NCBI GenBank assembly: GCA_001275005.1
Contig: JWZX01003057.1
Coordinates: forward strand, 1-39,783
Source of the DNA: Chrysochromulina tobinii
Lineage: Eukaryota
Direction of reading: 5' to 3'
DNA: 39,783 nt
A program made the position numbers and the translations under genes. Position 1 is the first letter of the stretch; each line of letters begins with the position of its first letter. Shown here one piece after another: positions 2,021 through 37,600 of this stretch. Under the pieces are notes generated by a model. The model was not told the origin of the DNA. It worked only from the letters and a program-made list of their open reading frames with translations, and did not search any database.

Positions 2021-2145
2021 GGCCCGCGACGACGCAGGTGCATGCGCCGCCCGCGACGAGCAGGAGCGGCCCGCGACGACGCAGGTGCATGCGCCGCCCG
2101 CGACGAGCAGGAGCGGCCCGCGACGACGCAGGTGCATGCGCCGCC
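2021..2145 (+). repeat. 47-bp tandem repeat (about 2.7 copies) within a probable intron 2038-2194
   Basis: GGCCCGCGACGACGCAGGTGCATGCGCCGCCCGCGACGAGCAGGAGC starts at 2021, 2068 and 2115. It is followed by CTGATGGCGTCCCTCATCAG|GTGCATGCGCCGCC. Confidence 0.85.
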
Positions 2146-2306
2146 AGGCGGCAGGTGATCGCCACTGATTGCCCCTGATGGCGTCCCTCATCAGGTGCAT
2201 GCGCCGCCGCCACTCGGCTCTCGGGTCCAGGTTTGGTGGGATGGCGATAAGAAGCGGTCTGCTTGGGACTGTGCTCTCGCGTGTGGGCACGGCCGCATTG
2301 GCCTGA

Positions 2307-2549
2307 AGTGACGCGGCGCTGTGCGCGGAACAGATGCACTCGCGCGGCATCGACAACGCGCTTGCCGAGCGCTTCGACCTCGGCTTCACAGCCCGGTGGC
2401 AAGGTCCTCGCTAAGTACCTCGCTAGCCAGCCAAACGTGTCGCGTACGCGTGCACGCAGGCCGGGCCGATCATCGACACCGGCAGCTACGACCGGTTCCG
2501 CGCGCGGCTGATGATTCCGATCCACGACGCGCACGGGCGTGTGATCGCG
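2307..2549 (+). pseudogene. dnaG: Fragment of bacterial-type DNA primase (DnaG catalytic core N-terminal region), frameshifted
   Basis: Reads EQMHSRGIDNALAERFDLGF / PGGKVLAKYLASQPNVS / AGPIIDTGSYDRFRARLMIPIHDAHGRVIA. This matches DnaG motifs YLxxRGI..F.LG.AP and YDRFRxRIMFPIxDxxGRVIxFGGR. Two compensating frameshifts; similarity stops before FGGR. Confidence 0.8.
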
Positions 2550-3099
2550 CTGCCCTCGCTCTCGGCTCCGTCACGGGTGGCGGCGGCGGTGCCCCTCAAC
2601 GATATAGTCGCCGCGAGTGGCCTGAGCGCCAAAATGGCCGCGGCAACTCCCACGACAACGCCCAGCGCGTAAGGGTAGGGCCGACGACAGTAGGTGTCGA
2701 CGGTGCCAGCTTACAAGCTCACCATATTGCGCGTGCCTCCGTCCAAGCTTCGGCCTTTCGACGCTCGATCTGAGCGGCTCGTGAAGCGCGGCCGAGGCGG
2801 CGCGTCTCATCGGCGGCCGTCCACGGCTGGGCGTCTGCCTAGGCTGGGTGATCTCTGCCTGGGTGAGGCTCAAGGGCGAGCCGTAATCAAGGAAACGGTG
2901 TTGACCGTGGGCGAGCTGAAGCGAATTCTTCTCGATGAGCGGCTTGGCGGCGGGCGTGCTCATGTCACCGTCGTCTCTGCCTGCGACGCTCGATTTGAGT
3001 GGATCGTCATGCGCGCCGGCGGCGCTTGCGAGGAAATTGGAGGGCCTGAGAAAGAACGCGGCGCTGATGGTCGAGCTGTTGGCGCTGCTGGTCGAGCTG

Positions 3100-3484
3100 G
3101 GGCGAGCGCGGAGGCGAGCGCGGCGGCGAGGGCGGCGAGGGCGGCGTCGAGGGCGGCGGCGAGGGCGGCGGTGACGGCGGCGGCGGTCATGGTGGGGTTG
3201 ATCGGGTTGGCGGCGGCGGAAAGGGCGGGGGGGACGACGTCGGCGGAGATGGTGGAGGCTACGGCGGCGGCGATGGCGGCGGGGATGGCCTCGGCGATGT
3301 GGCGGCGAGGTTGGCAGTGGCGGCGAGGTGGCGGCGAGGGTGGCGGTGACGCGACGGCGTCGGCGAAGGTGTCGAAGAGGATGGCGGTGGCGAAGGTGGC
3401 GGTGCCGGCGTCGGGGACGACGGCTGCGGTGTTGTAGGTGGCGATGGCGGGGGCGAGGTCGGTGGCGAGGGCGGTGCTCATGGA

Positions 3485-3515
<31 letters not shown>

Positions 3516-4140
3516 AGGGCGGCGGTGATGGCGGCGACGGTCATGGTGGTGTTGATCGGGATGGCGGCGGCGGAAAGGGCGGGGGCGGCGACGTCGGCGG
3601 AGATGGTGGAGGCGACGGCGGCGGCGATGGCGGCGGCGATGGCCTCGTCGATGTGGCGGCGAGGGTGGCGGTGGCGGCGAGGGTGGCGGTGACGGTGACG
3701 AAGAGGGTGGCGGTGGCGAAGGTGGCGGGGCCTGCGTCGGTGACGACGGCGGCGGTGATGTAGGTGGCGGTGGCGAGGTCGGTGCTGATGGAGGCGGCGG
3801 CGAGGGTGTCGATTGAGGCATCGCAGATGGTGGGGGCGGCGAGGGAGCAGGCGACCGTGGAGTCGTGGTTGGGGGAGGCGATTGGCGATCACGGAGGCGA
3901 TTGAGGTGGCGATGTAGGCGGCGGACAGGGTGGCGGTGGCGTGGGCGGAGGCGACGGCAGGGGCGATGGCTGCGGCGGAGATGGTGGGGTCGTAGTCGGC
4001 GGAGGAGACGGCGGCGGCGTCGATGGTTGGGGCGGCGACGGTGGAGGCGGTGGCGACGGCGGCGGCGGAGTTGGTGGTGGCGGAGACGGTGGCGGCGGCG
4101 GCGACGGCGGCGGCGGAGTTGGTGGTGGCGGAGATGGAGG
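3100..4140 (-). repeat. Low-complexity (GGC/GGT/GAG)-rich tract; degenerate Ser/Pro-rich (SPPPP) extensin-like coding repeat with an internal ~200-bp duplication
   Basis: The minus strand gives SPPPPTPPPPSPPP runs that jump between frames. Segment ~3120-3320 is repeated at ~3490-3680. Confidence 0.7.
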
Positions 4141-11048: not shown

Positions 11049-14000
11049 ATGTCGGCGCGTCACGTGGCTCGCGTGCTGAGCCAGCGCGCGCAGGAACATC
11101 CAGACTCGTCAGATGACGATTACGATGCTCCTAAGAAACCAATCCGCCCGGCGTTTCAGCTTCCCGTGGAGGGTGATGATGACGACAACGATAGTGAGGA
11201 GGAGGCGCTGCCGTTGGCCGCCGCGCATGCAGAGGCAGAGGACGACGGTGCGCATCCGGGAGCCGCACCAGCAGAGGGCGAGGACGACGATTTGGAGGAC
11301 GAGGATGGCCAGCCGCCTCAGGCGAAGGCTACGAAGAAGAAGAAGAAGAAGAAGAAGAACAGCAGCAGCAGCAAGCCGTCGTCGGCTGGTGCTGTGGGTG
11401 AGCCCGACGACGACGACGACGAGCGCGCGGTGCTGGAAGAGGCTGTCGCATCGAACTCGGCCGGCTCGCGTGCGGCGGCGATCGCGGCCGTTTGGATCGT
11501 GTCGGCGGGCGCTGTGGACGCCGACGGGGAGCTCAAGCGGAGATTTGGCGGGAAGGCGGTGCGTGCGGTGCAGCGGGAGGGCCTTGCCGCGAGCGCGGCG
11601 GCAAGGGGCGCGCGCGGCCCGCCCGCTCCTCGGCGCGTGCTCCTCGTCACACCCAAGCCCGAGTGGGGTCGACCCCACGGCCTTCTCAAAATGGAAAGCC
11701 GAGCGCTGGGAGATTCGAAGCTCTTCGAGTTCGTCTGGTCGGATGAGTACGTGCGACTCCAGCGGACTCTCGAATCACTCGTGCTCGCCTCGGCGGACCC
11801 AAACATGCTGATGGAGCTCCTTCATCACGAACCCTGCCACATCGGGGCGCTCCTGCAGCTCCATGACGTCGCGACGCATACGGGCCAGGTGAGGGGTCGA
11901 GGGGTCGCTGATGGCCTCTCGGAGGGTCGCTGATTGCCTCCCTGATTGCCACGGATGGCCTCTCGGAGGGTCGCTGATTGCCTCCCTGATTGCCACGGAT
12001 GGCCTCTCGGAGGGTCGCTGATTGCCTCCCTGATTGCGCCTCGGAGGGTCGCTGATTGCCTCCCTGATTGCGCCTCAGAGGGTCGCTGATTGCCTCCCTG
12101 ATTGCGCCTCGGAGGGTCGCTGATTGCCTCCCTGATTGCGCCTCAGGTTGAGCTCGCCTCGGAGCTCTTGCAGCGCGCAATCTGGTGCCACGAGGCGGCG
12201 GTGACGCCCGGTTTCGTCAACGCATGGCTCGCCGGCGGCGCGCGCATGCTCGGGAGCCTTCCCGCCAACCGGCCGTTCTTCCACGCGCTTCACAAGTACA
12301 CTGTGGCCGTCTCGCGTCGCGGGTGCCCGAAGGCCGCCGTCGCGCTGGCCAGCCTGCTGCTCTCCCTCGACCGCACTGACCCGACCCGAATCCGCTGCTG
12401 GCTCGACATCCTCTGCCTTCGTGCCTCCGAGCCCGCCCGCGTGTGGCTGCATGCACTCGAGTCTCCCGAGGCTTGCGACCGGCTGCCCGGCTTCGCCCTC
12501 TCGCACGCGCTCGCGCTCCACGAGCTCGCCGCCGCCGCTCAGGAGGGCGCGCCCAACACGGCGCTCGCCCACACGCCATTCGAAGCCGCCGCGCCGCCCG
12601 CCGGTCAGGCGCCGTCGTGGGCGGACGGCGGGCGCGCGCAGCTCAGTACGGCGCTGCTCACCTTTCCACAGCTGCTCCCCACAGCGCTGCAGGCGTGCGC
12701 GGCGAGCAGCGCCCCCGCCACGAAGCTCGCGGCGCGCTGGCGACGCGTCTTTGGCGAGGTGAGTGTCGTTAATTGCCTCTTGATTGCCACTGAGTGCATG
12801 CTGATTGCGCTGGCGACGCGTCTTTGGCGAGGCGAGACGGACGCCCAACACGACGCTGCGGCGCGCGTGCCGTCCCATGGCGGCCTCGTGGCAGACGAAA
12901 CCCTCAATCGGCGCACCTCGGGGCTGACGAAACCCCTGATCTTCACACCTCTTGGCTGACGAAACCCCTGATCTTCACACCTCTTGGCTGACGAAACCCC
13001 GGATCGTGCCCCCGATCTCGCATGCAGGTGCTGCGGACGGTGCCCAACACGGCGCGCCCAAACGGGACGCTCGACCATCTGATCACGCTATACTTCGAGC
13101 GTGCCGCCGAGCTCTGGGCCCGAACTGAGCCGTTGCGCTGGCTGCAGGAGGAGGCGACCAGGCTGCTCGATGCTCTCGAGGCTGCGGCGGCCGCCGAAAC
13201 GACGGCGCCCACGACGGCGCCCACGACGGCGCCCACGACGGCGCCCACGACGGCGCCCACGACGGCGCCCACGACGGCGCCCACGACGGCGGCCATCGAC
13301 GACGCACACCCGAGTCCGTCCTCGTCGTCTATGATGATGCCCCGAGTGCACGAGTCCGTCCTCGAGTGCGCGCGTGCTTCCGCGGCGAGGTGCCTTCGGT
13401 TCTACCCCCACTGACTGCCACTGATTGCCACTGATTGCCACTGATGAGCTATGATGATGACCTCTGATTGCCTCCCTCATCAGGTGCCTTCGGTTCTACC
13501 CCGCCGGTGGTCCTAATCTCCTACGGGGATGTGAGTACACGAAGCTGATCGCTGAGCAGGTCATCATGCCCCTCCCCTTGATGGCCTCTGATTGCCTCTC
13601 TCATCATGCCCGATGGCCTCTGATGGCCTCCGTCATCAGCTCTGATGACCTCTGATGGCCTCTGATGGCCTCGGATGACCTCGGATGAGCCTTCCTCATC
13701 AGGTTGTCATCCCGGAGGAGGAGGTGGTGCGCCCCGCCCCCCCGGCCCGCTCCAGAGCCGCCGCCCCCGCCCGCCGCCGCCGCCGCTGCCCAGGCCGGAC
13801 GCGTCGGCGGCGGGCGAGGCTGCTGGCGAGAGCGCGAGCGGCGATCTCGGAGCTGAGCTCGGCGATCATCTCGGCGAATTGTTCGAAGAGGCCAACGAGC
13901 TGAGCGAGCGCGTGCAGGAGCTCGAGCGCCTCGCAGCGCAGGTGATTGCTTCCCCTGATTGCGTGCTGATTGCGTGCTGATTGCCTCCTGATTGCACCTT

Positions 14001-14389
14001 GGATTGCTTCTTGAGTGCCTCTTGAATGCCTTTCACAAGAGCTCGAGCGTCTCCTGGCGCAGGGCGTGGCGCCGCACCTGCGCCCACTCTGATGACCTCT
14101 GATGACCTCTGATGACCTCCGATGACCTCTGATGACCTCTGATGACCTCCGATGACCTCTGATGACCTCCGATGACCTCTGATGACCTCTGCCGCAGGGC
14201 GTGGCGCCGCACCTGCGCGCCCTCATACGACAGCGGCTGGCCCACGTCGACGAGAAGCTCACGCGCTCGATGATTGCGACGGATGGCGCGAGTGCGGCCT
14301 CCCGAGAGGCGAAGCGCACGCTCATCAGCCGCCTGGACGGCCTGTGTGCGAGAGTGGCCGTATTGCAGGCAAAGGTGGGCGCCAACTAA
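11049..14389 (+). CDS. TCF25: TCF25/Rqc1 ribosome quality-control protein; exons 11049-11888, 12147-12758, 13028-13389, 13484-13559, 13703-13941, 14198-14389
   Basis: Acidic/Lys-rich N-terminus, ELKRRFG, PKPEW, F.F.WS.EY..LQ, DPN.L..LL...P.HI.ALLQL, NRPFF.AL...RRGC, LY.ERAAELW...WL. Introns are GT-AG. Exon 13703-13941 needs a 1-nt correction in a C/G run. Confidence 0.85.
11889..12146 (+). repeat. TCF25 intron 1, composed of ~34-39-bp GGAGGGTCGCTGATTGCCTCCCTGATTGC repeats
   Basis: CAG|GTGAGG ... CCTCAG|GTTGAG. Splicing restores HTGQ|VELASELLQRA. Confidence 0.85.
13199..13291 (+). repeat. Coding 12-bp minisatellite (TTAP)n
   Basis: ACGACGGCGCCC repeated about 7 times in a TCF25 exon. Confidence 0.9.
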
Positions 14390-14636
14390 AAGGCAAAGGT
14401 GGGCGCCAACTAAATGAATGTCGTCGCTTCAAGATCGAAGATGCATCGCTTCGAATCACGGACATCTGGGTCCTTTTTTCTCCCGCTTTGTTTGTGAAGT
14501 GAAGTGTGAAGGAACTTGAAAAGATGAAACGAATCCTGTGCGTCCGCCGCACCGTGGCAGGGGTCGGGCTTCATATCACCGCTTCGGAAGGGCCGGCTGA
14601 AGTGGGGGCGTCGAGTGCCCTTCTCGACCGCCCGAC

Positions 14637-17032
14637 ATGCCCGAAGTCAGCATTCAGATCGTCGAGTCGCGTGCTCCAGCTCCACTGAAGCGCTTCCAGG
14701 AGGCGGGCAAGAGTGTCATGCACTCGTCATCGCTGACGGTCGTGCTGCCGGTGTCCGTGCTCGAGGACGCCCAATGGCCTGCGATGGGGCCGTTCGATGG
14801 ACGAACTCAACCGCCAAAGGACGAAGACGAAGAGGCTCAGCTCGAGGAGCTGCGCCGCAAGCGCCAGGAAAAGCTCGAGGCCGTGCAGGCGTTGGGCGGT
14901 CACGCTGCAGGCAAGCGGATGACGGGGCGTCAGCGGGCGCGCTGGATGATTGAGGGCTGGAAGTGGCAGCTCTTCCTGCTCGTGGTTGCGATTATTGACA
15001 TTGCGATGCTCTTCGTGGAGCTGAATGCAGGCCCCGGGGCCATGATTCCCGTGGCGGTGGTCACCTTCGTTGTGCTCTTCATTTTTGTGGTCGACTTAAT
15101 CATCCGGTACTATGCGTTCCGCAACAAGCTCTTCAGCTCGTTTTGGTTCTGGTTCGACTTTTTCGTGGTGGCGTTCTCCATTGTGCTCTTCCTGATCGGG
15201 CTTGGGTTTGGCAGCACGGACGCCGAAGTGGGCCAGAGCGGTTCTACGGCGGCGCGCGGCGGCAAGGCGCTGCGCGGCATGATCGTTGCCCTACGCTGGT
15301 TGCGTGCTGCCCGCCTCGTCATCAAGCTAACCCAGGTGAAGGGCGGCGCCTCGACGGCCGCGCGCCACGCGACCGGAGAGAACAAGAAGCGCTACGTGGA
15401 CCTCGAGCACGGCTTCGACCTCGATCTCGCCTACGTGCTGCCCGACTTGATCGCCATGTCCGTGCCGGCGATCGGATGGACCGCGCTCTACCGCAATCCA
15501 CTACCCGAGGTCGCTCGCTTTCTCGAGCTGCGCCACGGCAAGGGCGGGTACACGATCATCAACTGCTGCCCGGAGCTGCCGTACCCGCCCGACAAGTTCA
15601 AATCAGGCGAGGTCGTGCGCTTCGACATCCAGGACCACACGCCGCCAAACATGCTCCAATTCGTCTCGTTCCTCAACTCGATGCGCCACAAGCCCGCCTC
15701 GCATACGCTCGCGATCCACTGCCGCGGCGGCAAGGGGCGCACTGGCTCGATGTGCTGTGCGTGGCTGCTCTACTCGCGCGCGTGCCTCGACGCGGACGAC
15801 GCCCTCACGCACTTTGCTCTCGAGAGAACGGAGCTCTCCCTCGGAAAGAAGAAGATCCAGGTTCGTTGATTGCCATTGATGAGCTGCCTTGCATGCAAGT
15901 GCTCACCGCAGCGCTCCCACCTGCCGCTCTCGAGTTACAGGGCGTCGACACCCCCTCGCAGCGCCGGTACGTTCACCAGCTCGACGCGCTGTTGCGAGCG
16001 CAGAGTGCCTACCTGACCGAGCCCACGAGACGGCGCCGCGCGCCCGCCTCCACCTCAGACGCGCAGGGCGAGGAGTCGGCCACGAGCCTGAGGGAGGAGA
16101 GCAGCAGCAGTAGCAGCAGCTGCTGGAGCCCCGATGGCACGGATGGCAGCTGCCGGAGCCCTAATGGTCGGCCGGCAGGATCGCTCGTGCGACCACCAGC
16201 GTGCCCCACCGCTTCGATGCGCTCGCTCGACCTCGTCAATTGGTACGCGAAGGCTCCCAAGGGCGCGCTCGTGTGTGCGGTGCATCGCAACGGCGGTGAG
16301 GGTGAGGACCGTGGCAAAGTGGTTCACTGGTCGCCGCCGGTGCGCGACTTCTCCACCGCGGGCTCTTTGATCTCGTTTGATCTCGCTGGGGTCGACGTGG
16401 ATGGCGACGTTCGGGTCTCCGTATTCGCCCTCGACGACCTCCTCAAGGTGCGGCGCAAGCGGCTCAAGAAGGGCCTGGCGGCGCGGCTGCCGTTCGACGC
16501 GGCGCCGACGGGTCCGTGGGAGGATACCGCTGACACGCCCGAGACGGCCATGCGTCAGAAAAAGTCGAAGAAGGACGACAAGCGCGTCATTGCGGGCAAG
16601 GAGAGCGGGTGCAAGTTCTTCTTGCTCTTCCACACGGGTTTCGTTAGCAGTACGGGCGAGATGCCGGTGCCGCTCAAGATGATGGACAAGGCCTTTAAGA
16701 ACAAGGGGAAGAAGTACCGTCCGGAGGGCGTCGCCACGCTGCGCTTCGAGTTGCTCGAGAAAGCTTCGATCAAACCGACCCTTGGGGCGGCCGTCGATCA
16801 GGCAGTCGGCGCACATGAGGCTGAGCTAAGCGCCGACCCAAGCGCCGACTCGTCGACGTCGAGCGCCACGCGCAATCAAGGGGCACTCGCCCGCGCGCGC
16901 AAGGCAAGTGGGGCGTCGTCGTCGGTGGAGACGTCGGCGATGCCCGAGACGACGCGACCGACGGGTGAGAGCACCGCGCTCGCTGAGATGATGGCGGCGG
17001 CCGAGGGCGATCGATCGGACGACCAAATCTGA
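14637..17032 (+). CDS. Voltage-sensing phosphatase (TPTE/VSP-like): voltage-sensor domain + PTEN phosphatase + C2; intron 15861-15940
   Basis: Four TM segments with FWFWFDFFVV and an Arg-periodic S4 (LRWLRAARLVIK). NKKRY...GFDLDLAYV, LYRNP, DHTPP, active site HCRGGKGRTG. Spliced IQ|GVDTPSQRRYV. C2-like GDVRV..F and FHTGFV...MDKA.K. Confidence 0.9.
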
Positions 17033-17713
17033 CCAAATCTGAGCAAATCTGACCAAATCTGAGCAGGCAGGAGGACTAGCGTTCCAACTCAACCCGTCTT
17101 GTGCGCTCTCCGGCCAGTCAGACTCATTAATGTGGTGCATGCTCATGTTCGCGTCCTCAGGGGATCGGCTGTGGGGTGTGTCCGGGAAGATAACGGGGGG
17201 CGCACATGCGTTATGCTGCCTGTGCTCGCGTATATCCCCCCCCCACCGCACGCGCGCGGCGCGTCGTTCCACTCGTTCTCCCGTCTCCCCCTCCGTATCT
17301 CCCAGAGTCGATGCTCGTTCGTGCGGCCGAGGTGGGGCGGTACGCCGCGTATTCGATTGCGGTGATCGAGTGATCTAGTATGACGTATACGTAACTCGAC
17401 TGTGGATAGAAGGTTCTGCCTCTTCTGCGCTGACGCCCACACTCACACTCTCGCGTCTGCAGCGGGGCGTCTCAAACTCAATCTACTCCGCTACACACCG
17501 CACTGTCGTCGCTGAGTTCTGTATTCTCCAAAAACGACATCGAACATGCAAACACGAAACCAGCGCCCCGGCCAGAGATCCAGCCGCGGGCCCACCTGTG
17601 TAGTTTGTAGTGTGCTGGTGTAGTGTATTCGGAATTCGCCGATTATCCGTATAAGAAGAAGTTAGTATTCGTATCTGTACAATCTGAAGCAAGTACACAT
17701 CGTCGTCTCTTCA

Positions 17714-21972: not shown

Positions 21973-22181
21973 AGACAACGGTAAATGGCGCCGCCGCCAA
22001 TTCGCAATTGGCCACCGCGCATGAACGCCTCAGGCCTTTCCAAAGGCATCAAGAGCACAAGAGCTATCCTGCCATTCCCCACCTTCCCCCCCTTCCCCCT
22101 CTTCCCCCGTCCCCACATCATTGCATGCTAGGAACCTACCGGTCCACACCGCTTTTCCCACAAGAACGCCAGGGGTTTTCG

Positions 22182-24245: not shown

Positions 24246-24401
24246 CTCCGGGTGAGACGTTAGGGCGTACATGGAACAGCGAGTAGGTTGAGGGAGGGTT
24301 CTTCCAAGGGTCCTCGGGATAGGGGCGACTGTGTGAACGATAAGAACGGCGAACGAGAGCGCCCGCTTTTGCGGTCCGACAGCGCGCTCTTCGCTGGCGG
24401 G

Positions 24402-26037
24402 ATGCCGGTACTCCGAGTGCGCACCAAGGACGGCACCGAGCGGCTGACGGTGCCAGCGGGTGCGACGCTCGGTGACGTGCGCGCACAAATTGAGAACGAG
24501 CTCAAGGTGCCGCGCACGCAAGCGACGCTCGCACGGTCGGATCAGGCAGGGCCCGTCGCAAAAAAGGGCGCGCCGTTTTCGCCCAGCGACGACTTGCTGC
24601 CGCTCTCGGCGCTCGGCGTCGCCAATGGCGACATGGTCTTCCTCGACTACACGATGGAGCGCGAGAATCAGGCGCACTACGTCGAGAAGGACCCGTTCAA
24701 GACACTGGTGTCTGAGGGCGAGCTGCGGCAGCAGGGCAAGGACAAGTGGACGCTGACCGACTTCATGCTGTACCGGTCGAGCAAGGAGTTTGTGCTCGGC
24801 GCGCCGCCGGAGCCGCACGCCAAGTTCGTCCAGACCGACCAGCGCGCGACGCAGGCGTTCATTAACTACATGATCGCGACGGGCTTCATGCAGAAGCGCA
24901 TCGGGTACCTATACGGTCGGTGGGTGACGGACGCGGTGACGGGCGATGAGGGCGTGCAGGTGCACACGATCTACGAGCCCGCGCAGGAGTGCACATCCGA
25001 GGACGTGCAGCTGCTGCCAGACGCGGAGGGTGATGCGAAGCTCGCGCAGGTAGCGGCGATGCTGGGGCTCGTGCAGGTCGGCGTGATCATCGGGCACCCA
25101 GCGCGGGAGTACGCGTTCACGATCAATGAGATCATGCTCGCGTCGCAGCTGCACGCGGCCGCACTCGCCGCGGATCCAGAGCACGGCAAGCGCTTCGTCA
25201 CCATGAAGGCGCGCCCGCCAGCATGCATGTGCTCACCACGGCGCCCTCTCCTCCCCAGCATGCAAGTGCTCACCACGGCGCCCTCTCCTCCCCATGAAGG
25301 CGCGCCCCGTGCTCCGATCGGAGACTGAGATCGATGGAGTGGCCACGGTGGAGGCGTACCAGATGACGGACCAATGCGTGGAGCTCGTTAGCAAGGAGGC
25401 GTTCTCGCAGGTGCGCGCCATGGCTAGCGTCGGGCGGCGCGCCTCTGAGTACCTGCCACTGCGACGCGCGCGCCGTCTCGAGCACCGCCCTCTGAGTAGA
25501 GCTGCCACTGCGACGCGCCGTATCGAGCACCGCCCTCTGAGTACCTGCCACTGCGACGCGCGCGCCGTCTCGAGCACCGCCCTCTGAGTAGAGCTGCCAC
25601 TGCGACGCGCCGTCTCGAGCGCTCCCTCTCAGTCCAAGACGGACCCTCGAGTCGCCAAGACTGCCAAGGACTGCTGCTTCCTCGTCGAGAAGAAGGAGGT
25701 GCGCAAGGCCTCCTTCGAGATGTTCATCGCGCGTGTCTTCGACGTGGGACGTGCCCTGGACGGCAAGCCATTCAACTCCTTCCTCGGCTCCGGATTCGCG
25801 ATCGAGAACCGGCCGACTGAGCCGCAGGACGCGGCCAAGATGACCTCGTACTTGCGGAACCGCCGGAAGGAGCCCTTCTTGCGCACCGTCTCCGACTTGC
25901 ACTTCCTCCTCTTCTTGGCCAACTTCCTCGACGTCAAGTCGGATCTACCGGTACTCTGCGCCAAGGTCGTCGAGAACAAGGGCGACGAGCTCGAGGGGTT
26001 TCAAATGATGATCAACTGCTACGCGGGCCTCGAGTAG
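24402..26037 (+). CDS. NPL4: NPL4 (nuclear protein localisation 4, Cdc48/p97 cofactor); introns 25209-25299 (GC-AG) and 25411-25632
   Basis: N-terminal UBL (MPVLRVRTKDGTERL), R.GYLYG, V.V..IYEP.Q, LGL..VG.I.GH, EAYQM..Q, F.IENRP, SDLHFLLFL. Confidence 0.9.
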
Positions 26038-26499
26038 GTATGGGCGCCGTTATGAGCACGCCCGATACGGCGCCACGACCATGCTCCGCGCGAGAGAGGG
26101 GTACCCAGAGGTCTCAGGCTAGGAGAGAGGGTGGAGGTCTCCTCAACATGGCTCTTGGGAGACTTGTTGATTGTTCCAGCTGAGCACCCGACCGGCGACG
26201 CTCGCGAAACCCCTCGAGATGAGAATGTGCGGAGATCGCTCGAGCATTTGATTCAAGAACGTTCGAATCAAATGGATCTGGCGACCAGGTTGGTCTTCCT
26301 CAGATTCCCCCTAATTAAGAATACGTCAAAAAGGACGGAGTCATAAATTTTCTCATCATGAAGTTTGGCTCAAGATTCTCCTCCGACTTCGCGACAGGCA
26401 GATCGCCCTTTCCCGAAGAGGTGCGCCATGCACGCCTTGCCGGCCACCGCGACCAAGCGCCAAAGACTTGATGAATGCACCTCTGGCGGTGCAGGTACT

Positions 26500-27682
26500 A
26501 TGTCTGCTGCTAAGGCCGCGAAGCCTGTCGAAGATGTTGCCGGCGAGACCGACTTCAACTCGCTGACGCAGTGGCTCATGACGAACACGAAGGATAAGGA
26601 GGTGTGCACACGCGAGTGCATCCGGGATGCCCGGACGGACGCATGATGCCGGGAGCAGCGCTCGGGCCATTATCGACATCTCTCCATGTGCTCACGCTGC
26701 GCCGTGCTCGACTCTCGCCGCATTGCGATGCACTTTGCGACAGCTCACCGTGCTCATGGCGCAGCTTGCACTCGCATGCAAGGCCACCTCGCGTGCGTGC
26801 GCCAAGGCCGGCATCGCCAACCTGTTCGGCATGTACGGCGAGCAGAACTCGAGTGGCGATGACCAGAAGAAGCTCGACGTGCTCTCCAACGACATCTTTA
26901 TCAACGCGCTTCTCAAATCGGGCTCGTGCTGCGTCCTTGTCTCCGAGGAGAACGAGGAGCCGATCATCGTGCCTGAGGAGCTCGCGGGCCGCTTCTGCGT
27001 CGCGTTCGACCCGCTCGATGGCTCGTCGAACATCGACTGCAACGTGAGCACGGGCACCATCTTCGCCGTGTACGAACGTCTCTCGACTTCGCCGCTGGGC
27101 ACAGTGGAGGACATCCTCCGCACCGGCAACGACATCGTGGTGGCCGGCTACTGCATGTACGGCGCAGCGACAGAGCTCGTGCTGTGCTTCAAGCAGGGCA
27201 AGGTGGAGCGCTTCGCACTCGACCCGTCGCTCGGCGAATTCATCCACACGCATGCCAACGTGCGCTTTCCTGCCGACGGCGGCAAGAAGATCTACTCTTG
27301 CAACGAGGGCAATGCCCTCTTGTGGGACGAGACCTGCAAGAAGGCGGTGCAGCACTTCAAATCGAGCGGGTACGCGGCGCGCTATGTGGGCTCGATGGTG
27401 TCCGACGTGCACCGTACCATTCTGTACGGCGGCGTCTTCATCTACCCCGCTGACAAAAAGTCGACCAAGGGGAAGCTGCGCGTGTTGTATGAAGGGTTCC
27501 CTATGGCCCTGATCGTCGAGAGCGCGGGAGGGATCGCCTCGACGGGCATGTTCAACGGCTCGGTGCAGCGCATGCTCGACCTCGTGCCCACCAACATCCA
27601 CGAGCGCTGCCCGGTGATCCTCGGATCGCCCCGGGATGTCAATCTCATCCTCGGTATGTACAAGGGGACGGACGTCCAGTAG
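26500..27682 (+). CDS. FBP: Cytosolic class I fructose-1,6-bisphosphatase; intron 26602-26743
   Basis: GDDQKKLDVLSN, LVSEENEE, FDPLDGSSNIDCNVS.GTIF, ARYVGSMVSDVHRT, GKLRVLYEGFP. An alternative start at 26428 is possible. Confidence 0.96.
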
Positions 27683-27835
27683 AGACGCGCCGTCCCGGGC
27701 ATGGAAACAGCACGCGAACGGCGCGGATTGGCCCCTCACTAGGGACGGGCAGAGACGCCGACTTTCGCCTTTTCGGCGAGCGCCCTGTACTCGACATATC
27801 CATGTGGCCTTCGATGCCTGCATCTGCAGGCGACG

Positions 27836-27880
27836 GGCGAGATGCAGGCAGATGCAGGGAGATGCAGGGAGATGCAATCT
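27836..27880. repeat. Short (GAGATGCAGG)n microsatellite
   Basis: Three to four degenerate copies downstream of FBPase. Confidence 0.7.
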
Positions 27881-28559
27881 GCTACAATCTGCAGTCGAAG
27901 GGCGAGCGCGGTGGGTCGTGGCGGTGTATCCTTAGGGTATGCATGCAGCATGATGGATCTTGAACGTGGTGGCGAGGTTACGGCAAGGAGGACGGTGTGC
28001 AGCGGAGCCGAGGAGCCATAAGTGCAATACATGGATGCACGGCGAAAAGCGAGTGAGCGGGGCCGGGCGCGCAGTGGCACACCGCCGGCATGAAGTGGTA
28101 GAAGTACGTGAGCGCCCCGAGGCTGAGCAACGGTGCAGCGCGCGGCCTGGGCGCTCGGGCGGGAGACACTTGACACTGAGTGGTCTCGGCGTTACATAAT
28201 CTCGACTCGACCGGTCGCGTCCGCTGCGCGCTGCCGTCGACGGATCAGCACATAAAGCGGTTACTGCTGAAGGTGCATGCTCTTAGCATGCTCTGCGTCA
28301 CTCCTGGTGTGGGGTTTTGATACATGCAAGATATTCATAAATTGGTTTATTGGGATTATGGCGTGTTCAATCGCGAATCGGCAGCCACTCGAGCACCGTC
28401 CCATTGTTGGCGGCGGTGCTCAACCTCTCACGCAGTCCGGCAAGGCGCGGCGCACAGACCGCGCCTTGTCGGGCTCGCGGCGCTCGCGCGCATCCGCGCT
28501 CGTCCACTCGCCGTGCACACGCTCCCTCACGGCTTCATTAAGGCTTCATTAAGGCTTCA

Positions 28560-30011
28560 TTAAGGCTTCATGACCGTGCGCAGGCGCTTGCAGGCCTCGA
28601 TGCACGAGTCGCGCGGCGCGAAGGCAGAGAGCCGCAGGAACCCCTCGCCGCCCGGCCCGAAGCCGGCTCCGGGGATAGTAACCACCTGAGCCTCAGAGAG
28701 GATCTTCGAAAACATGTCCCAGGACGACTGGCCCTTGAGCCCGACGAAGATGTACGGCGCGTTGTCGCCGCCGTGCACCTCCATGCCGATGTCAAGCATC
28801 GTCTCCTTGAGGATGCGCGCGTTCTCCATGTAGTAATCGATCATGACCTGTTGAGGGAAGCAATCGGCGGTAATCAGCATGCACTCAGAGGTCATCATGA
28901 CCTTGATCTCCGCGAGGGCCTCGGGGTCGAGGCAATCAGCGGTAATCAGCATGCACTCAGAGGTCATCATGACCTTAATCTCTGCGAGGCCCTCGGGGTC
29001 GAGGGCGGCGAGCACGCCGCTCTGCACGATGTTGGACGCGCCGTTGAACGCGGTGCACATGATGCGGTTGTAGTCCGCCGCCACCGGCGAGCCGTCCGCG
29101 AAGGTAAGCTCCTTAGGGACGACGGTCCAACCCAATCGAACGCCCGTGAACCCTGCGTACTTGGAGAAAGAGTTGACTTCAATGGAGCATGTGCGCGCGC
29201 CCGGGATCTCGAAGATGGACTTGGGCACATCGGGCGAGCGGATGAACGGCGCGTACGCCGCGTCGAAGACGATGATCGAGCCCATCTTGTTGGCCCAGTT
29301 CACGAGCTCGGTCAGCTGGGCGCGCGAGGCGGCCGCGCCGGTCGGGTTGTTGGGCGAGCAGAAGTAGATGATGTCGGCGCGCGGCGTGTTTTTGAGGTCG
29401 GGGAACCAGTTGTTGCCCGGATTGCATGGCATGTACACGATGTTCTCGTACTGCTTGCGCTCCTGGTTCATCAGGCCGGTCTGGCCCATGATGACCGAGG
29501 TGTCGACGTAGACGGGGTACGACGGGTCCTGCACCGCGGTCTTGGTCGAGCTGCCGAACATCATCTGCAGCCGGCCGATGTCGCACTTGGAGCCATCCGA
29601 GACGAACACCTCACTCGGGTCGATCTTGTCGTCGTACAGGTTCTTGGCGATCTTGCTGCGCAGCTGAGCAATGCCCTGCTCAGGACCGTAGCCTGTGTAG
29701 CCCTCCTTGGTGCCGAGCTTTGCGGCGCCGGCCTTGAGGCCGTTGAGGATGTGCTCAGGCACGGGAAGCGTCGTGTCGCCAATGCCGAGGCTGATAATCG
29801 GCCGAGTGTTCGGGTTGGCCTCGATGTACGCGGTCCGCCTGCGGCCAATCTCCGGGAAGAGGTAGCCCGCCTGCAGCTTGCCCATGTTGACGTTGCGCGC
29901 GACCGCGCTCATCGCGATGCCCGATTGGTCCACGCGCGAGGCGGATGCCGCGTCGGGCGCGTTGCCGACGAAAGCCGAGAGCGGCAGCAGCAAGGTAACG
30001 GCGTAGAGCAT
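28560..30011 (-). CDS. dapL: Plastid-targeted LL-diaminopimelate aminotransferase; intron 28848-28973
   Basis: RNVNMGKLQAGYLFPEI, ISLGIGDTT, EVFVSDGSKCDI, QDPSYPVYVD, FCSPNNPTG, SFSKYAGFTGVRLGW, PGAGFGPGGEGFLRLSAF. N-terminus MLYAVTLLLPLSAF is a signal peptide + AF motif. Confidence 0.96.
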   Translation of the reverse strand: MLYAVTLLLPLSAFVGNAPDAASASRVDQSGIAMSAVARNVNMGKLQAGYLFPEIGRRRTAYIEANPNTRPIISLGIGDTTLPVPEHILNGLKAGAAKLGTKEGYTGYGPEQGIAQLRSKIAKNLYDDKIDPSEVFVSDGSKCDIGRLQMMFGSSTKTAVQDPSYPVYVDTSVIMGQTGLMNQERKQYENIVYMPCNPGNNWFPDLKNTPRADIIYFCSPNNPTGAAASRAQLTELVNWANKMGSIIVFDAAYAPFIRSPDVPKSIFEIPGARTCSIEVNSFSKYAGFTGVRLGWTVVPKELTFADGSPVAADYNRIMCTAFNGASNIVQSGVLAALDPEGLAEIKVMMTSECMLITADCLDPEALAEIKVMMTSECMLITADCFPQQVMIDYYMENARILKETMLDIGMEVHGGDNAPYIFVGLKGQSSWDMFSKILSEAQVVTIPGAGFGPGGEGFLRLSAFAPRDSCIEACKRLRTVMKP

Positions 30012-30933
30012 TTGCTTCGGTGTCGACTGCGTGGACGCCGAGAGAAAGCAGCAGGAAGATCTCGCGAATCGGAGATTGGCCGATCGCAAGGGGCGGTCCC
30101 GTCTGACAGATGACTGATGTGTCTGCCAGGGCCGAGGGGGTAACATGTAAGGGGGCTCGTGTCTGGCGACTCGCGACCGACCAATTGCGAGTTTGCGACC
30201 GACCTCATACATGTATCTGCGCTCTATGGCGCTCTGGGTGCTCGTTCGTTTCCCAACATTCCCTTTCCCCCCACCAACCTGGTTTTCGGCTCCAGATCAT
30301 TCACAGTACCCGTACCCTCTGCAACCGAGTGGTTCTCTTTGTATCGCACGTAAAGACTTTCCTTGTCTTGCTCTAATGTTTCAACTCCGACCCCGTGGCA
30401 TCGGCCAGGGCCAGCCATAACTCGATGCCGCTTCACGTGGCCCAGAGAGCGCGGCAGCGAACTGAAATTCAGCCGCCGCCGGTCGTCGCATCGTCGTTAC
30501 CACTACCACCGCCACTGATGCCACCAACGCGATTGCTCGCTCAGCTGACAATTGCTCACGGGGCGAGCTTCCTGCCCTGCGGCCACACGCACTTCTCATG
30601 GCAAAGTGCACACACAGGCGCCGTCCCGCCAGGGCACACGCCATTCTCATGGGGCACCGCATTATAGAGCAAGGATTCTAACCACCATCACCATGCCCAT
30701 GCTATGCCCGAAACGGCTGCGGCAAGTAGGTGGAAGACAAAGTCGCCCGACAAGACCATCCGCGGTACGACAAGACCATCCGCAGTAGGCCGTGGTGGCA
30801 TGCGCGTTGCCTCGCCCGTCGAGCACGCGGCCGGGCCATCGGCCCCGAGCTTTAGGCTGGCTCTCGCAGGTGCATTGACCTTCCGAGTGCCCTCCGAGTG
30901 CTACTGATAGCCTGCACTCTCTGCTCGGTGGCT

Positions 30934-31034
30934 GCCATGCAACCCTGCGCCTCCAGCCATTGCAGGCTCCAACCCCGCGCCACCAGCCATTGCACGCAAG
31001 CCTGCCATGCAACCCCGCGCCTCCAGCCATTGCA
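30934..31034. repeat. Degenerate ~30-40-bp tandem repeat
   Basis: CAACCCCGCGCC(T/A)CCAGCCATTGCA x3. Confidence 0.75.
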
Positions 31035-31820
31035 CGGGTCAAGGACGAAGCATTCCACTCCACCAACACTGAGGAAACCATGCGGAATAGTGCATTCCAA
31101 TTGATCCTACCGAGACCGATGCGGTGGCGCCTCTGCGTAACCCTCTGCTTGCAATCCCACTGGCGCTCTGATTGACCCTGATTGACCCTCTGATCACCCC
31201 TGTCCCGCTGCTGGATCGCGGGCGTGCACAGCAGGCAGGACGTGCACTTGCCGATCAGCTCGTGCAGCTCACCGCGCTGTGATCCGCGGGTACCACCTTC
31301 ATCCACCTCACTTTGGGCACCTGGAGCTCACGAAGCCCATGTACCACGTATAATAGTTACGCCTAGGGCCCGAGGCCGGGCAGGCGCTGTGCTAGGAGCT
31401 AGCGATGCAGCCGCGGGCCAAGTTCAAGCGCAGGTGTACACTTTACAACGATTACGCGCTTACCGGGGCGTTCTTGAGTCGTGTTGTGGTTGTGTACGAT
31501 CCCCGTGCGGGCGTCCTCATATGTGCGCCGTGCTGCGTCATTACGGTTAGCTTTTTAGGCACTACAACCGGTCCACACAGTACAGAGGCTGGTGCTTTGC
31601 CCTCCATGCGCCTTCATGCGCCTTGCCCCCCGGTTTCACCCACCATGCTCATTCATAGACATTCCGGATACCGTTGTACATGTACTTCGTGCGTGTCCCG
31701 GCTCCCCCAGAGCTCCCCCGGTGTTTTTAACCTTCAAGGGGGGAACAAGGGGTAACGCGGTAGAAGTTTGTTTTGGAAGGAGGGAAACACAACATGAAGG
31801 CATCCTAGGCATGCGCCCTG

Positions 31821-33471
31821 ATGCGCACGAAGTTGACCACGCACCACCATTTGTTACATGTAGTCCTCGCCGCGCTCATGCAGCGGCCCACATCGGCTTT
31901 GACTCAGACTGAACTGGACACCATGTGCGGCATCGGACCTGGTGTCGATGGATCTGCGTTTTCGCCCATGGGCTGCGGAAACCTCGCCAGCGTGTCGGGT
32001 CAATGTATAGAGCACATCAACGGGCGCATGCATGCTGGGATGGCCTATCAGCTCATATGCGACGCTGAGGTCGACTTTGTCCGTGGAATGATTCCTCATC
32101 ACCAGGCCGCCCTTGAAATGTGCCTTGCCCTGCTCAGTTTGGGCAACCCAGTCGACCCAGCCCTCCGCCTCTTTTGTCGTGGGATGGAACTCGACCCACG
32201 ACTACTTGAAGGGAGTCATTCCGGGGCAGCAACGTGAGATTGCCCAGCTTTACGCGTTCCTGGCGCAGCGTGCGGTCGGCAACGCGACGCTGTGCCCACA
32301 AACTGCCATGAGCATGTCACCTGCGCCGTCGTCGCCGTCGGGAGGGCACACGGGCCATGGGCGGCGTCTTGCCGTCTCGCAACATGAGTGCGGCATTCAC
32401 TCCCGAATCATCGACCTTCCCATCTACGCCACATCGGCGCCGCGGTATGGCGTCAGCGTCGCTCCTCAGGGTCGCCGTTTGCAGCACGCTGGTCATTCGA
32501 TGGTGATGGCGTGTGGCGACCTGAGCTGCACTTCCTCACAATGCTTTCAATACGTGAGCGCCGAAGCTGTCACCCTCCTCCATGCTCCATGCTCTGATTA
32601 ACGCTGATTGTGCTATTAACGTCTCTGATTGCCTCTGATAGCATTGGCCCCATTAACGTCACCCTCCTCCATGCTCCATGCTCTGATTAACGCTGATTGT
32701 GCTATTATCGTCTCCCTCCTCCATGCTCCATGCTCGAGCCCTCTCCTACCTCAGCCCCCATCCCACCGCTGCCCGCAGGGGAACGAGTACATGCACACCA
32801 ACATGGCGATCGAGCTCACAGGGGACATCAACATCGACTTCGCTCGCTCCATGCGTCCGCATCACCAGGTGCGTGATGACCGCTGATGGGCGATGATTGC
32901 CTCTGATGGCCTCTGATGGCCTCTGATTACCTCTGATGGGTGATGATTGCATCTGATGGCCTCTGATTGCCTCTGAGTATAACTGACGAACTCGAGTGCC
33001 TCTGATTGCCTCTGATTACCTCTGATTACCTCTGATTACCTCGGATGGGTGATGATTGCATCTGATGGCCTCTGATTGCCTCTGAGTATAACTGACGAAC
33101 TTGAGTGCGTCTGAGTGCAGTCTGCCGTGGACATGTGTCGAGTCCTGATCGAGTTCCGGGGGACACTCCTACACCCCTTCTTGCGCTACACGTGCAACGA
33201 GGTGATCGCGCATCAGCAAGAGGAGATTGAATACATCAATGCGTGGCTCTCTGCGCGCGGTCTCGCCGCTGGCCAACTGTGCAGTAGCCAGCCGGCCGAT
33301 GTGGGGAATGATGTGGGCATGATCATCGGGGCCGCCGTCGGTGGAAGTCTCGGCTTCTTGGCTCTGTTGGGCGGCATCTACGCAGTCGCGTCATATACGA
33401 AAGCCACCGCCGCCACCACCGTCGCCGCGAAGAGCATTCCAACGGGCGTTGTGATGACTGATAAAATTTGA
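31821..33471 (+). CDS. Secreted/type I membrane protein with two DUF305 (CopM-like, ferritin-like) units; frameshift near 32177; introns 32554-32778 and 32869-33120
   Basis: Signal-like N-terminus. MHAGM..DFVRGMIPHHQAALEMC..Q.REI..L and MHTNM..GD..IDFARSMRPHHQ|SAVDMC..VIAHQQEEI..I..WL. C-terminal TM GMIIGAAVGGSLGFLALLGGIYAV. Confidence 0.8.
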
Positions 33472-33994
33472 GAGCCTGCTGGCGGGACAGAGTAACCACC
33501 AGACGCGTATTGCGTGAGGGCACATCTCGATTACGTTATGGCGGGGTAGCACCGGGCGCCAGGGTGCTTGCAGCGGCGTTCTCGCCTGTCGCGCCTCTGC
33601 AGGCGTGTGCCGGGCGGCGGGGTGAGGCGCGGCGTGCCCGGCGTGCGACTCCCGAGCGTTGCGAGTCAGTGTGGTTGCGAGTGTTGACTGAGTGTTGAAC
33701 TGAGTGTACGCGTGCGTTCGTGCTGTGTGCCGCATGACTCATGTGCCAGAAAGCAGAATCGGTCGGCAAAATGTACTATACGTGTGTGGACAATAATGTA
33801 TGCACACGACGTGCGCTCTGGGCACGAACACGTTCGTGGTCACCACATCGGCGTGCCCGCCCGCCCGCCGCGCCCGCCCGCTAGCCCGCCCGCTAGCGAA
33901 CTACGAGGGGGAGGGCGGTCCTATGGCCCTCGACTAGGTGCCCGTGATGACCGTCAACAATTGTCTCCAACCGGTCTGGTGCCAGTGCGACCAT

Positions 33995-34618
33995 TCAGAG
34001 CTTGGCGCATGCGTGCGTCTTGAAGGACGCCTTGAGCTCATCGACGCGCGCAATCGCCGGGAAGAAGTGTACCTGCCCTGGCTTGGCTCCTCTGGCGAGC
34101 GCCTCGGGGCTGTTTGCCTGCTCACCCGGGCCCACGTTCCAGAACTGCTCGGGCGTCTGCGTCTCTTTGAAGTACACCAAGATGGGAAAGCTCTCCGATG
34201 GGAAAAAGTCCCAGTTGACGAACTCATCGTAGCGCCAGACGTTCTCGCCGCCAACAACGACGTTCTCACCTGTAGATGAGCCGTCCGCCTTCACGAGCGC
34301 AAAGCTGGTCTCGTCGAATGTGAAGCGCAGCGTGGTCGTTTGGAAGGCGATGAAGAGGCCGAAGACGGCGCAGAGCGCGCCAAGGGCGTAGCCCGCGCGC
34401 GAAGCCAAGCTCGGTGCACGGCTCGGCAGTCCGAAGACGCCGCCAAGAAGGACGGAGCCGATGGCGAGATCGTAGGAAGGGTTGATTACCTCCAGAGAGG
34501 CTGCGGGTCCTGTGCAGCGTGCAGCGGCGCGGCCTCGTGCAGGCGCAAGCGCTGGCAACGTGAACGCGGTCATCGTTGGCAACGCGAGGAGCACGAGGAA
34601 ACCCTTGCTCTTCGCCAT
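33995..34618 (-). CDS. DUF3119 family plastid membrane protein
   Basis: Signal + TAF transit motif, two TM helices, QTTTLRFTFD, WRYDEFVNWDFFP...PILVYFKETQ, QVHFFP. Confidence 0.88.
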   Translation of the reverse strand: MAKSKGFLVLLALPTMTAFTLPALAPARGRAAARCTGPAASLEVINPSYDLAIGSVLLGGVFGLPSRAPSLASRAGYALGALCAVFGLFIAFQTTTLRFTFDETSFALVKADGSSTGENVVVGGENVWRYDEFVNWDFFPSESFPILVYFKETQTPEQFWNVGPGEQANSPEALARGAKPGQVHFFPAIARVDELKASFKTHACAKL

Positions 34619-34698
34619 GTGTGAGCGAGCACACACGACAATTAATTTTCTTTCCTAAAATGGGCTACCGGTACATCCGATTCACACGTGAAGCTCGC

Positions 34699-37600
34699 TT
34701 AATCGCGAACAGCGGCGCACGCGCACAGGCGCGTCGTCAGTTTATGGAAGCCGAGGCACGTGGGCGCCTCCGTGTTGACGAGACACATTCTCGGCTTGCT
34801 TTCGGCCGGGGCGTCTTCGGACACCAGAGCAGGCTGGTCGGCACCGAACGACACCTCACAGCCCTGGCACTTGAGGTACTTCTCGAGCTCGGAGCACACG
34901 TTGATCGCCCTCAGCCCCTCTTCGGAACAGCGCTTCCCACTGGCTGCGCATGTCGCCTCGCAATCGGCGCTCTGCTTGGCCACGAACACGCTCCACGGAT
35001 CCTCGATGGCATCGGCGCCCACCTCGGCGCGAAGCAGGCCACGTGTGACCTCCTCGTCGAGCTCGGCGCTCGACACGGCGCCCACCTCAGCTTGAGACTC
35101 GTCCACGCGCTCACCGCCATCGGCGCCGTGCCGAGCGCCGACGAATTTCCGACTGCTCACGAGTTGCCTAATCCGGTCGAGCGCCTTTTGCAGTCGTTTC
35201 ATCTTATCGCCCTCGCCGCCGCCGCTGCCGCCGCTGCTGCTCCTGACGCTCCTTACGCTCCTGCTGCCGCTTCCGCCGCCGCCGCCGCCGCTGCTTCCGC
35301 CGCGCTCCCCTGTGAGCTGGGGAGGAGAGGGCGCCGTAGTGAGCACTTGCATGCTGCTGCTGCTGCTGCGCTGGCCGCTGATCGACTGCTCGATCGTAAC
35401 GGTCGGCGTGTCGATCTCCGGTGTGGGCGCCGTCGTGGGCGTCACCGTGCGCGCATCGTGCGCACGGAACGAAGGCAGCGCGCGTAGCGGTGGCAGCGAC
35501 CCCAGAGGAGCGGTGACGCGTTCCTGATGAGGGAGCCAATCAGGTGCCATCAGTGACCATCAGTTCCTGATGAGGGAGCCAATCAGGTGCCATCGGTGAC
35601 CATCAGTGGCCATCAGAGACAAGCCATGCCGATCAGCGACCCCAGAAGATTGGCGACGCGAGCCTTGCTCAGGGAGAGCGCCACGTCATCAGCGATCATC
35701 AGCGATACTCAGTGACAATCAGCGTGCCTTGCTCGGGGAGAGCGCCACGTTCTTGTAGGAGCTCGCCGACCATTGAATCCTCGCAGGGCTGAAGAACGTG
35801 GGCGAGTGCTGCGCCGCCTCGGTGCACGGCCATAGGTCGTCATCCGGGCACTGCTTCTCATTGAAGACCTGCCATCAGAGGTACTCAGAGGTACTCAGAG
35901 GTCATGAGAGGTCATCAGAGGTACTCGGCGGTACTCAGAAGTACTCAGAGGCCATCATAGGCCATCGGAGGCCATCAGAGGCCATCAGAGGCCATCAGAG
36001 GCCATCAGAGGTCATCAGAGGTCATCAGAGGTCATCAGAGGTCATCAGAGGTCATCAGAGGTCATCAGAGGTCATCAGTAGCCATCAGAGGCCATCAGCG
36101 TCATCAGGGCTAATGCTTCTCATGACTCACCTCTGCTGGCAGTAACCAGTCATATAGCAGCGAGTAACAACCCGGGTTGAACCGGTTCGTCAGTTGAGCG
36201 AGGGTCGAGATATGACCCACATGGTGGAACGTATTGTACCGGTAGATCCGGTCGGAGCGGCCCTTGGCATAGGCAGCGGTATCGTCACGCTCTCCCTGAG
36301 ACAAGTCGGGCGCTCGCAATCAGAAGACATGTCGGGCGCTCGCAATCCGAAGCCATGTCGGGCGCTCGCAATCCGAAGCCATGCCGGGCGCTCGCAATCC
36401 GAAGACATGCCGGGCGCTCGCAATCCGAAGACATGTCGGGCGCTCGCGAACCAAGGCCATCAGTGGCAATCCGTGGCAATCCGAGGCGATCAGTGGCAAT
36501 CCGAGGCAATCAGTGGCCCACCGAGGCCATCCGAGGCCATCCGAGGCCATCCGAGGCAATCCGACACGTACCGAGAACCATTCGAAGAGTAGATGACCGA
36601 GGCAATCAGTGGCAATCAGTGGCAATCAGTGGCAATCAGTGGCAATCAGTGGCAATCAGTGGCAATCAGTGGCAATCAGTGGCAATCAGTGGCAATCCGA
36701 CACGTACCGAGAACCACTCGAAGAGTAGATGATCGGGAGGGCGTCGGTCAAAGTGCGCCGCCAGGTGCGATGCCAAAGACGGCAGGTCGGACTGGCGTAC
36801 CTGATGAGGGAGGCAATCAGAGGTCGGACTGGCGTACCTGATGAGGGAGGCAATCAGAGGTCGGACTGGCGTACCTGATGAGGGAGGCAATCAGAGGTCG
36901 GACTGGCGTACCTGGCAAGTTGACGCGCTGCGATGAGCACTTGCATGCAAGGCAGGTCGGACTGGCGGACGCGCTGCGATGAGCACTTGCATGCAAGGCA
37001 GGTCGGACTGGCGGACGCGCTGCGATGAGCACTTGCATGCACGGCAGGTCGGACTGGCGTACCTGCGATATGGTACCATCAGAGGTGCCATCAGAGGTCA
37101 CCATAGGCCATCAGAGGGGCCATCAGAGGGGCCATCAGAGAGGCCATCAGAAGTTACCATAGGCCATCAGAGAGGCCATCAGAGGTTACCATAGGCCATC
37201 AGAGAGGCCATCAGAGGTTACCATAGGCCATCAGAGGTTACCATAGGACATCAGAGGGTGGCGCTCACCACGACGCCGTTGAAGCCGTAGCTCACACGGA
37301 GTGCCAAGGCCATCAGAGGGGCCATCAGAGGGTGGCGCTCACCACGACGCCATTGAAGCCGTAGCTCACACGGAGCGCCAACCATCGAGGATCATACCGG
37401 TACGCCTTGTCGATCGCGTGGTGTACACTCGCGAGGCCGTGCGGGCACAGCAGCCAATCGTCCTCGAGCAACATCAGGTGCGCCGCCGCTGGGCGCACGT
37501 TGAGTAGCGCTTCGAAGGCGCTCACAAGGTCGCAAGATTGCTGCTGGACTGAGGCCTTCGGAGGCGCGTGAGAGCCTCCCGCCTTGGGTGCGCGCGGGCA

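Follow-up and report, generated by a model that had tools for sequence, protein, structure and literature searches.

A spliced presence/absence intron with a traceable filler, and exon copies duplicated across splice sites, in Chrysochromulina tobinii

The first NPL4 intron on a contig of the haptophyte alga Chrysochromulina tobinii is a spliced presence/absence polymorphism of the kind expected of a recently gained intron, and its filler is evidently a dispersed module that forms the 3′ ends of introns elsewhere. The contig (JWZX01003057.1, assembly GCA_001275005.1) was analysed at its full length of 39,783 nucleotides, referred to here as the window. An initial annotation, made from the letters alone, had named at least nine introns with copies of adjacent exons and had proposed that introns are generated from such copies. 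All nine carry them, and for NPL4 intron 1, alone among the nine, a recent gain is the simpler reading; in the dapL intron and the TCF25 introns starting at 11889 and 13942 the copies postdate the intron, so that the proposal stands in part only. Short, microhomology-guided template switching probably, if by a narrow measure, makes the exon copies, mostly as duplications across splice sites and more rarely as new introns.

NPL4 intron 1 (25209..25299, + strand) is a 91-nt GC-AG intron filled by two units of a 37-nt module (~25218-25291), also recognised by Tandem Repeats Finder (TRF) as a repeat of period 37. Flanking the filler are 16-nt copies of the target (25201-25216 and 25292-25307), which supply both donor and acceptor. 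RNA and DNA contigs from three RNA runs and one DNA run were compared over window positions 23300-33400, the joints considered being those among the ones listed. An RNA contig (X17 record 23) joins 25200 to 25292, thereby excising the intron, and a loose end in X14 agrees. NPL4 intron 2 (25411..25632, +), which has no exon copy, is a 222-nt skip in the three RNA runs, and the FBPase intron is likewise skipped in 3/3. No splice-type joints for the dapL, NPL4 or FBPase introns are among those listed for the DNA run, whose contigs enter these introns without differences and do not span them. The RNA check suggested with the initial annotation thus finds both of the named introns examined, NPL4 intron 1 and that of dapL, to be spliced.

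Among the 34 near-identical NPL4 proteins listed (up to 15 members per cluster), intron 1 is present in 15 and precisely absent from 15, with the site uncovered in 4. The forms without it read into intron 2, whose text marks the relatives' contigs as genomic; as they retain that intron and their contigs reach 18 kb, they are considered genomic. More distant matches read through the site in 39 of 53 cases, 12 of the 39 breaking later elsewhere, as genomic open reading frame (ORF) calls do; most of the other 14 end short of the site or fail to align there. A recent gain is here simpler than a loss. Across relatives the number of module units at the site ranges from 2 to ~4. The direct repeats at the ends of the intron (8+8 nt) exceed the end matches of other introns (1-4), and the empty site aligns to the module with a score of 27, the maximum among 736 coding windows being 24 in what was a post hoc test.

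The core of the 37-nt module has 7 matches in the window, against 0.23 expected. In the DNA run the bin containing it has a summed depth of 8558 against ~44, depth not being copy number, and 42 and 35 contigs leave the module at its two ends, those at the 3′ end mostly continuing CAG|G. Dispersal and high depth would suit a reading in which the module is mobile but non-autonomous, being either retro-mobilised or an atypical Introner, and makes the new introns with a long duplication of the target; unrelated slippage would then account for the remaining exon copies. Provision of both splice sites by the 16-nt duplication fits as well, and insertion by non-LTR (non-long terminal repeat) elements typically gives long, variable target duplications. 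This is nevertheless rather unlikely. Neither a poly(A) tail nor a terminal inverted repeat was seen in the module, which folds no better than shuffles (z 0.83). Unit number varies from one occupant of the same site to another, the module is fused to decamer arrays in other contigs, and variants of it lie inside older introns. The target, moreover, resembles the module, and C. tobinii has 0 Introner families according to the available part of one screen (PMC12130899).

Pattern scans were also made, giving 0 and 0 matches in genome contigs and 0, 1, 1 and 9 in viral contigs. Nine of the 11 resulting loci were set aside as chance matches; the remaining two, L006 and, in part, L011, are haptophyte-like in appearance and combine duplicated gene-like sequence with modules in the same way. 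In positions 1-500 of L011, a 'viral' contig, phage-like DNA rich in AT is joined at a decamer to intron sequence that is GC-rich and haptophyte-like, and this contig is likely an assembly chimera.

Among known routes of intron gain, tandem duplication and break repair are listed in the sections available of PMC3443670, according to which 43% of the introns gained in Daphnia have direct repeats; the portion seen of PMC2809761 has few gained Drosophila introns with direct repeats, and filler without a donor in the genome. Like NPL4 intron 1, such break-repair gains are polymorphic new introns with direct repeats over the splice sites (PMC3443670, PMC2809761), those at NPL4 being above background, and the two also share a weak GC donor and a frameshift if unspliced. 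The difference is in the filler, which lacks a homologue in the accessible account of the break-repair gains (PMC2809761) and at NPL4 is a dispersed 3′-splice-region module, with a repeat of 16 nt. Introner target duplications are 3-9 nt, and a marine Chrysochromulina metagenome-assembled genome has Introners with 4-nt duplications, as far as the consulted text of PMC9860276 goes; in Polarella Introner class 14 a 4-nt duplication gives both splice sites (10.1101/2020.10.14.339549, in part). Introners are thus alike to NPL4 intron 1 in that a dispersed repeat makes an intron, in sense orientation only, with class 14 also taking both splice sites from a target duplication. On what these sources describe, however, the members of an Introner family resemble one another over their whole length and often have inverted repeats, whereas the C. 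tobinii introns are mosaics of variable unit number with no inverted repeat seen. End-to-end likeness is accordingly lacking, as are a short fixed duplication (16 nt at NPL4) and a significant hairpin. Some Introner families have neither fixed duplication nor inverted repeats in the part of PMC9860276 concerned, with which an atypical Introner would be compatible. As to creation at unrelated sites, the module is dispersed and one creation event is seen.

Introns formed by tandem duplication of AG|GT, as outlined in the available text of PMC3443670, are like NPL4 intron 1, the TCF25 intron at 13390 and the segment at 2038 in that duplicated exon supplies donor or acceptor, the difference being that none of the window's introns consists purely of duplicated exon, foreign modules being always present. 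The duplications that could be traced span an existing splice site and create no new intron. Polymerase-theta, or synthesis-dependent microhomology, end joining yields templated copies of flanking sequence, repeated switches and 2-5 nt of junction homology. Templated flank copies, repeated switches and microhomology are what the C. tobinii introns would share with it, a part played by that polymerase being putative; replication slippage would account equally well for long pure arrays and for copies as long as 72 nt. By analogy, then, the C. tobinii case resembles in its working the gain of introns by break repair, with a filler that recurs and can be traced, accompanied by intron growth through duplication across splice sites. 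The literature searched, with subscription papers and 2 of the 14 supplements of PMC12130899 falling outside it, held no description of these nuclear introns.

How a copy can be added to an existing intron is best seen in dapL. Its intron (28848..28973, - strand; 126 nt, in frame) can be resolved into an intron of 54 nt and a 72-nt duplicate made up of the exon end (copy at 28902-28932) and the 5′ part of the intron. The 126-nt skip is present in 3/3 RNA runs and absent in the DNA run; because the entire segment is spliced from its outer sites, the copy is absent from the protein. Unspliced, it is open in frame, and metagenome ORF calls read through it, so leaving a record in relatives. Among 120 homologues listed, 5 have the intron text singly (18 residues), 3 have the duplicated form and 112 have none; in this last group are one probable transcript and one annotated model from this species, the others reaching at most 78% identity; a three-unit form is also known (P0445). 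As the number of exon copies in this intron is 0, 1 or 2 depending on the relative, the copy evidently is a later duplication of exon end and intron start across the splice site of an existing 54-nt intron. Its breakpoint lies where the end of a decamer resembles the exon. An 8-nt 'exon start' copy, also reported initially, is missing from most single-unit relatives (VRM instead of VMM). One public dapL model (P0065) keeps 6 extra exon-copy residues where RNA contigs skip all 126 nt, and a C. parva model (P0376) is likewise misled by exon copies.

For the window as a whole, each intron was scored against its own flanks by the best ungapped match anchored at a splice site. Eight of the nine named introns score 17, 25, 19, 21, 22, 20, 22 and 33; the ninth, NPL4 intron 1, has 8+8 nt, one match per end, which is the 16-nt duplication. 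Control maxima are 8 for 272 swapped intron/flank pairs and 9 for 2006 pairs using 118 exonic AG|G sites, and the eight further window introns that could be delimited score only 3-5. Exon copies are hence present in 9 of 17 delimited introns, at lengths of 14-39 nt outside NPL4, and form a minor part of each intron except at 2038-2194. That the introns are different mosaics holds for all 17, which have short modules alone in common. Several differences between exon and copy are synonymous by eye, too few for testing an origin of the copies from another allele.

Two of 12 stop codons are likewise followed by a copy of the coding end, with scores of 23 and 12 where controls reach at most 7, and since copies span stop codons too, boundary-spanning duplication needs no splicing. 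Tandem duplications at stop codons are found at 14367-14414 (TCF25), 17021-17062 (a phosphatase gene) and 28531-28571 (dapL), and short ones abound all along the window, where TRF gives 110 rows. From this it might be held that ordinary tandem duplication plus survivorship accounts for everything, with no intron creation and with the empty NPL4 allele a precise loss. Such a view seems improbable, given that the NPL4 site is uninterrupted in outgroups, that the 16-nt duplication is intact and the module units near-identical, and that loss would require an earlier gain of the same form.

TCF25 shows both the apparently lineage-specific character of the introns and the variability of the copies. 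All five of its intron positions are uninterrupted in P0400, P0220 and P0222 (contigs up to 5, 11.7 and 12.5 kb), an annotated model (P0226) being left out of the genomic evidence, and because of these uninterrupted outgroups the intron set looks lineage-specific. The absence of the intron positions from other haptophytes, anticipated in the initial annotation, is indeed what the dapL, NPL4 and TCF25 comparisons give. Intron 1 (11889..12146, +), which the initial annotation had not named, lacks an exon copy in the window; loci L001 and L003 have a 21-nt exon-start copy there. The predicted intron 2 (12759..13027, +; open frame, anchored match) has a 25-nt exon-end copy at 12807-12831; in L005 another donor-like start, GTGAG, comes after it. 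Predicted intron 3 (13390..13483, +), on the same basis, begins with a 19-nt copy of the next exon (13390-13408), after which come decamers and then the CCCTCATCAG acceptor; it is the same in L001, L003, L004 and L005 and, as a duplication plus module, is the best candidate for a second gain. In predicted intron 5 (13942..14197, +) a diverged exon-end copy (14039-14062) is joined to an exon-start copy (14063-14083) between decamer arrays, whereas in L001 the exon-end copy is exact and the intron start is repeated after it, which amounts to a simple duplication spanning the donor. As the copies in introns 11889 and 13942 differ between strains, they evidently are later duplications, gained or changed after the intron existed. 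An mRNA template for joined exon-end and exon-start copies was considered and is not needed, L001 showing that 13942 could arise by successive duplications.

The gene at 34.7-38.2 kb, for which the initial label 'GT' finds no Pfam support, has similar introns. Its predicted intron 1 (36801..37342, -) contains a 39-nt exon copy (37269-37307) by duplication across the donor, a series of duplications over the acceptor at 36784-36914 with a period of 37 nt, and a module related to that of NPL4, and is present in 13/13 listed genomic cluster members covering the site. Predicted intron 2 (36296..36707, -) has a 25-nt exon-end copy at 36572-36596; in both, the intron's own start comes after the exon copy. 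In the predicted intron 4 (35524..35727, -; GC-AG) an exon-end copy (35664-35686) is joined to a diverged exon-start copy (35634-35663). The 37-nt module itself also lies in frame in the last predicted exon (35312-35360, -) in 15/15 listed cluster members, either as an exonised module or as an unrecognised in-frame intron. The intron-like segment 2038..2194 (+), in a putative host gene, consists of 47-nt units of exon start plus exon end and then a short decamer/acceptor block; one unit fewer is present in 11/14 covering cluster members. Its host has no Pfam match, and a stop follows soon after splicing.

In its strong form the initial proposal was that each intron is created de novo from copies of its own exons plus added decamers. 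The lineage-specific positions, the opening of TCF25 13390 and of 2038 with the next exon's sequence, and the joined exon-end and exon-start copies in 12759, 13942, 35524 and 2038 could all be so explained. It has little probability even so, for in dapL and in TCF25 11889 and 13942 copies were added or changed after the intron existed, 8/17 introns are without an exon copy (5 of the 8 having CTGAY repeats), and in 36801 and 36296 the exon copy precedes the intron's own start.

As to the decamers, the motif CYGATKRMC occurs 87 times in sense and 0 times in antisense in the 17 introns, with 9 occurrences outside them, so that the sense-only orientation first described is upheld. Padding with decamers had been described for most of the named introns; NPL4 and TCF25 12759 have no strict decamer. 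Of the branch-point consensus content claimed for them, CTGAY is common (122) and CTRAC rare (6). The bias may reflect branch-point use or selection against reverse-strand CAG acceptors, and the arrays would be expansions of a putative branch-point-bearing 3′ unit. Provision of an acceptor by decamer fold-back (CTGATG/CATCAG) found no support, folds being no better than those of shuffles (z -1.7 to 0.08). Intronic tandem repeats of 10-11 nt were reportedly described by Read and colleagues in 2013 in Emiliania huxleyi and would resemble the C. tobinii decamers in being strand-biased and in haptophyte introns; we know of no exon copies or intron gain tied to them.

Support for template switching comes from 12 of the 18 junctions, those where an exon copy adjoins a module that recurs in a different intron of the window. 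With chance extension allowed for, microhomology totals 34 bases against 16.6 expected (P 7e-4; 12 junctions, a small sample), so that an excess predicted under template switching is found. P is 8e-5 to 0.003 in four settings and 0.03-0.05 with one junction per intron, and over 8 settings spans 8e-5 to 0.046. Template switches of 10-70 nt would occur at short homologies during DNA repair or replication. Switches in cis would yield duplications across existing splice sites, and switches to other introns would bring in modules. More rarely, a dispersed splice-signal module would be inserted between two copies of an exon target, making a new intron, and one process would in this manner both enlarge old introns and make new ones. 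Copies would persist because splicing from the outer sites removes them, a removal seen for dapL.

Several points weigh against template switching as a source of new introns. An empty allele is demonstrated for 1/9 named introns only; the search for one gave nothing at TCF25 13390 (4 loci), at TCF25 11889 (12 covering proteins) or, among the listed cluster members, in the 34.7-38.2 kb gene, and the empty NPL4 alleles are known as proteins, not DNA. Intron-poor orthologues may be over-represented among the outgroups retrieved. In some other lineages positions close by are interrupted, one distant NPL4 match (P0012) breaking 3 codons past the site and P0221 stopping ~5 codons before the TCF25 13560 site. 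The 16-nt NPL4 duplication fits retrotransposition too, and microhomology is only 0-1 nt at 4/12 junctions, the NPL4 3′ junction among them. A wider, tentative suggestion, which we would hold doubtful at present, is that C. tobinii and C. parva have an active, transposase-free intron-making system in which breaks in module-like exon sequence are repaired by copying intron modules, with duplication of 15-20 nt of target, and that this could be the source of much of the intron set, missed by Introner screens.

That the duplications are assembly artefacts, which would have refuted the initial proposal, is scarcely credible. Short-read contigs do break inside the repeats, none spanning them, and locus L002 has one 44-nt unit fewer in TCF25 intron 11889. 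Nonetheless, L004 matches 20,612 window bases (2147-22760) but for two single-base gaps, the diverged loci L001, L003 and L005 (with copies in TCF25 12759 and 13390) and many independent protein records carry the copies, and substitutions separate copies from their exons. L004 may derive from the same culture as the window. Its two gaps remove a TCF25 frameshift caused by extra Cs at window positions 13746 and 13770; being absent from L004 and L001, these are likely assembly errors.

How spliceosomal introns originate other than in Introner bursts is still an open question, and few polymorphic gains have a donor that can be identified. In a cultured haploid alga with many wild strains, a segregating spliced intron with traceable filler would make repair-driven gain testable by population genomics, and allelic series (1, 2, 3 units) show how introns grow. 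An exon copy at the end of an intron may have been added later and does not alone reveal how the intron originated; gene models in the genus are also misled by such copies.

All nine named segments have GT/GC..AG ends, and removing the named introns leaves open frames in NPL4, dapL, the 34.7-38.2 kb gene and TCF25 (the last read on L004). TCF25 and NPL4 identities are backed by Pfam matches, and 4/7 queries had none, among them the gene at 34.7-38.2 kb and the surroundings of 2038. Best named matches of dapL and TCF25 are from C. tobinii, with C. parva models in the same protein clusters; the genome is given as likely haploid, with ~1 intron per gene, in the available text of PMC4580454, where introns come up a single time in the main text. 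Elsewhere in the window, 14637-17032 (+) encodes an ion-transport domain fused to a PTP-type phosphatase, with one 80-nt intron containing a variant of the 37-nt module. Its product we take to resemble a voltage-sensing phosphatase. A long GGC-rich low-complexity frame lies next to a fragment presumably resembling DnaG primase (2312-2773 and 2960-4140), with no Pfam hit. By eye, near-identical dispersed segments recur in a gene-poor stretch (20297-20390, 20737-20842 and 21927-21975). Just 5′ of the FBPase start, one RNA run has a 74-nt GT..AG skip (26418-26493), likely a 5′ UTR (untranslated region) intron.

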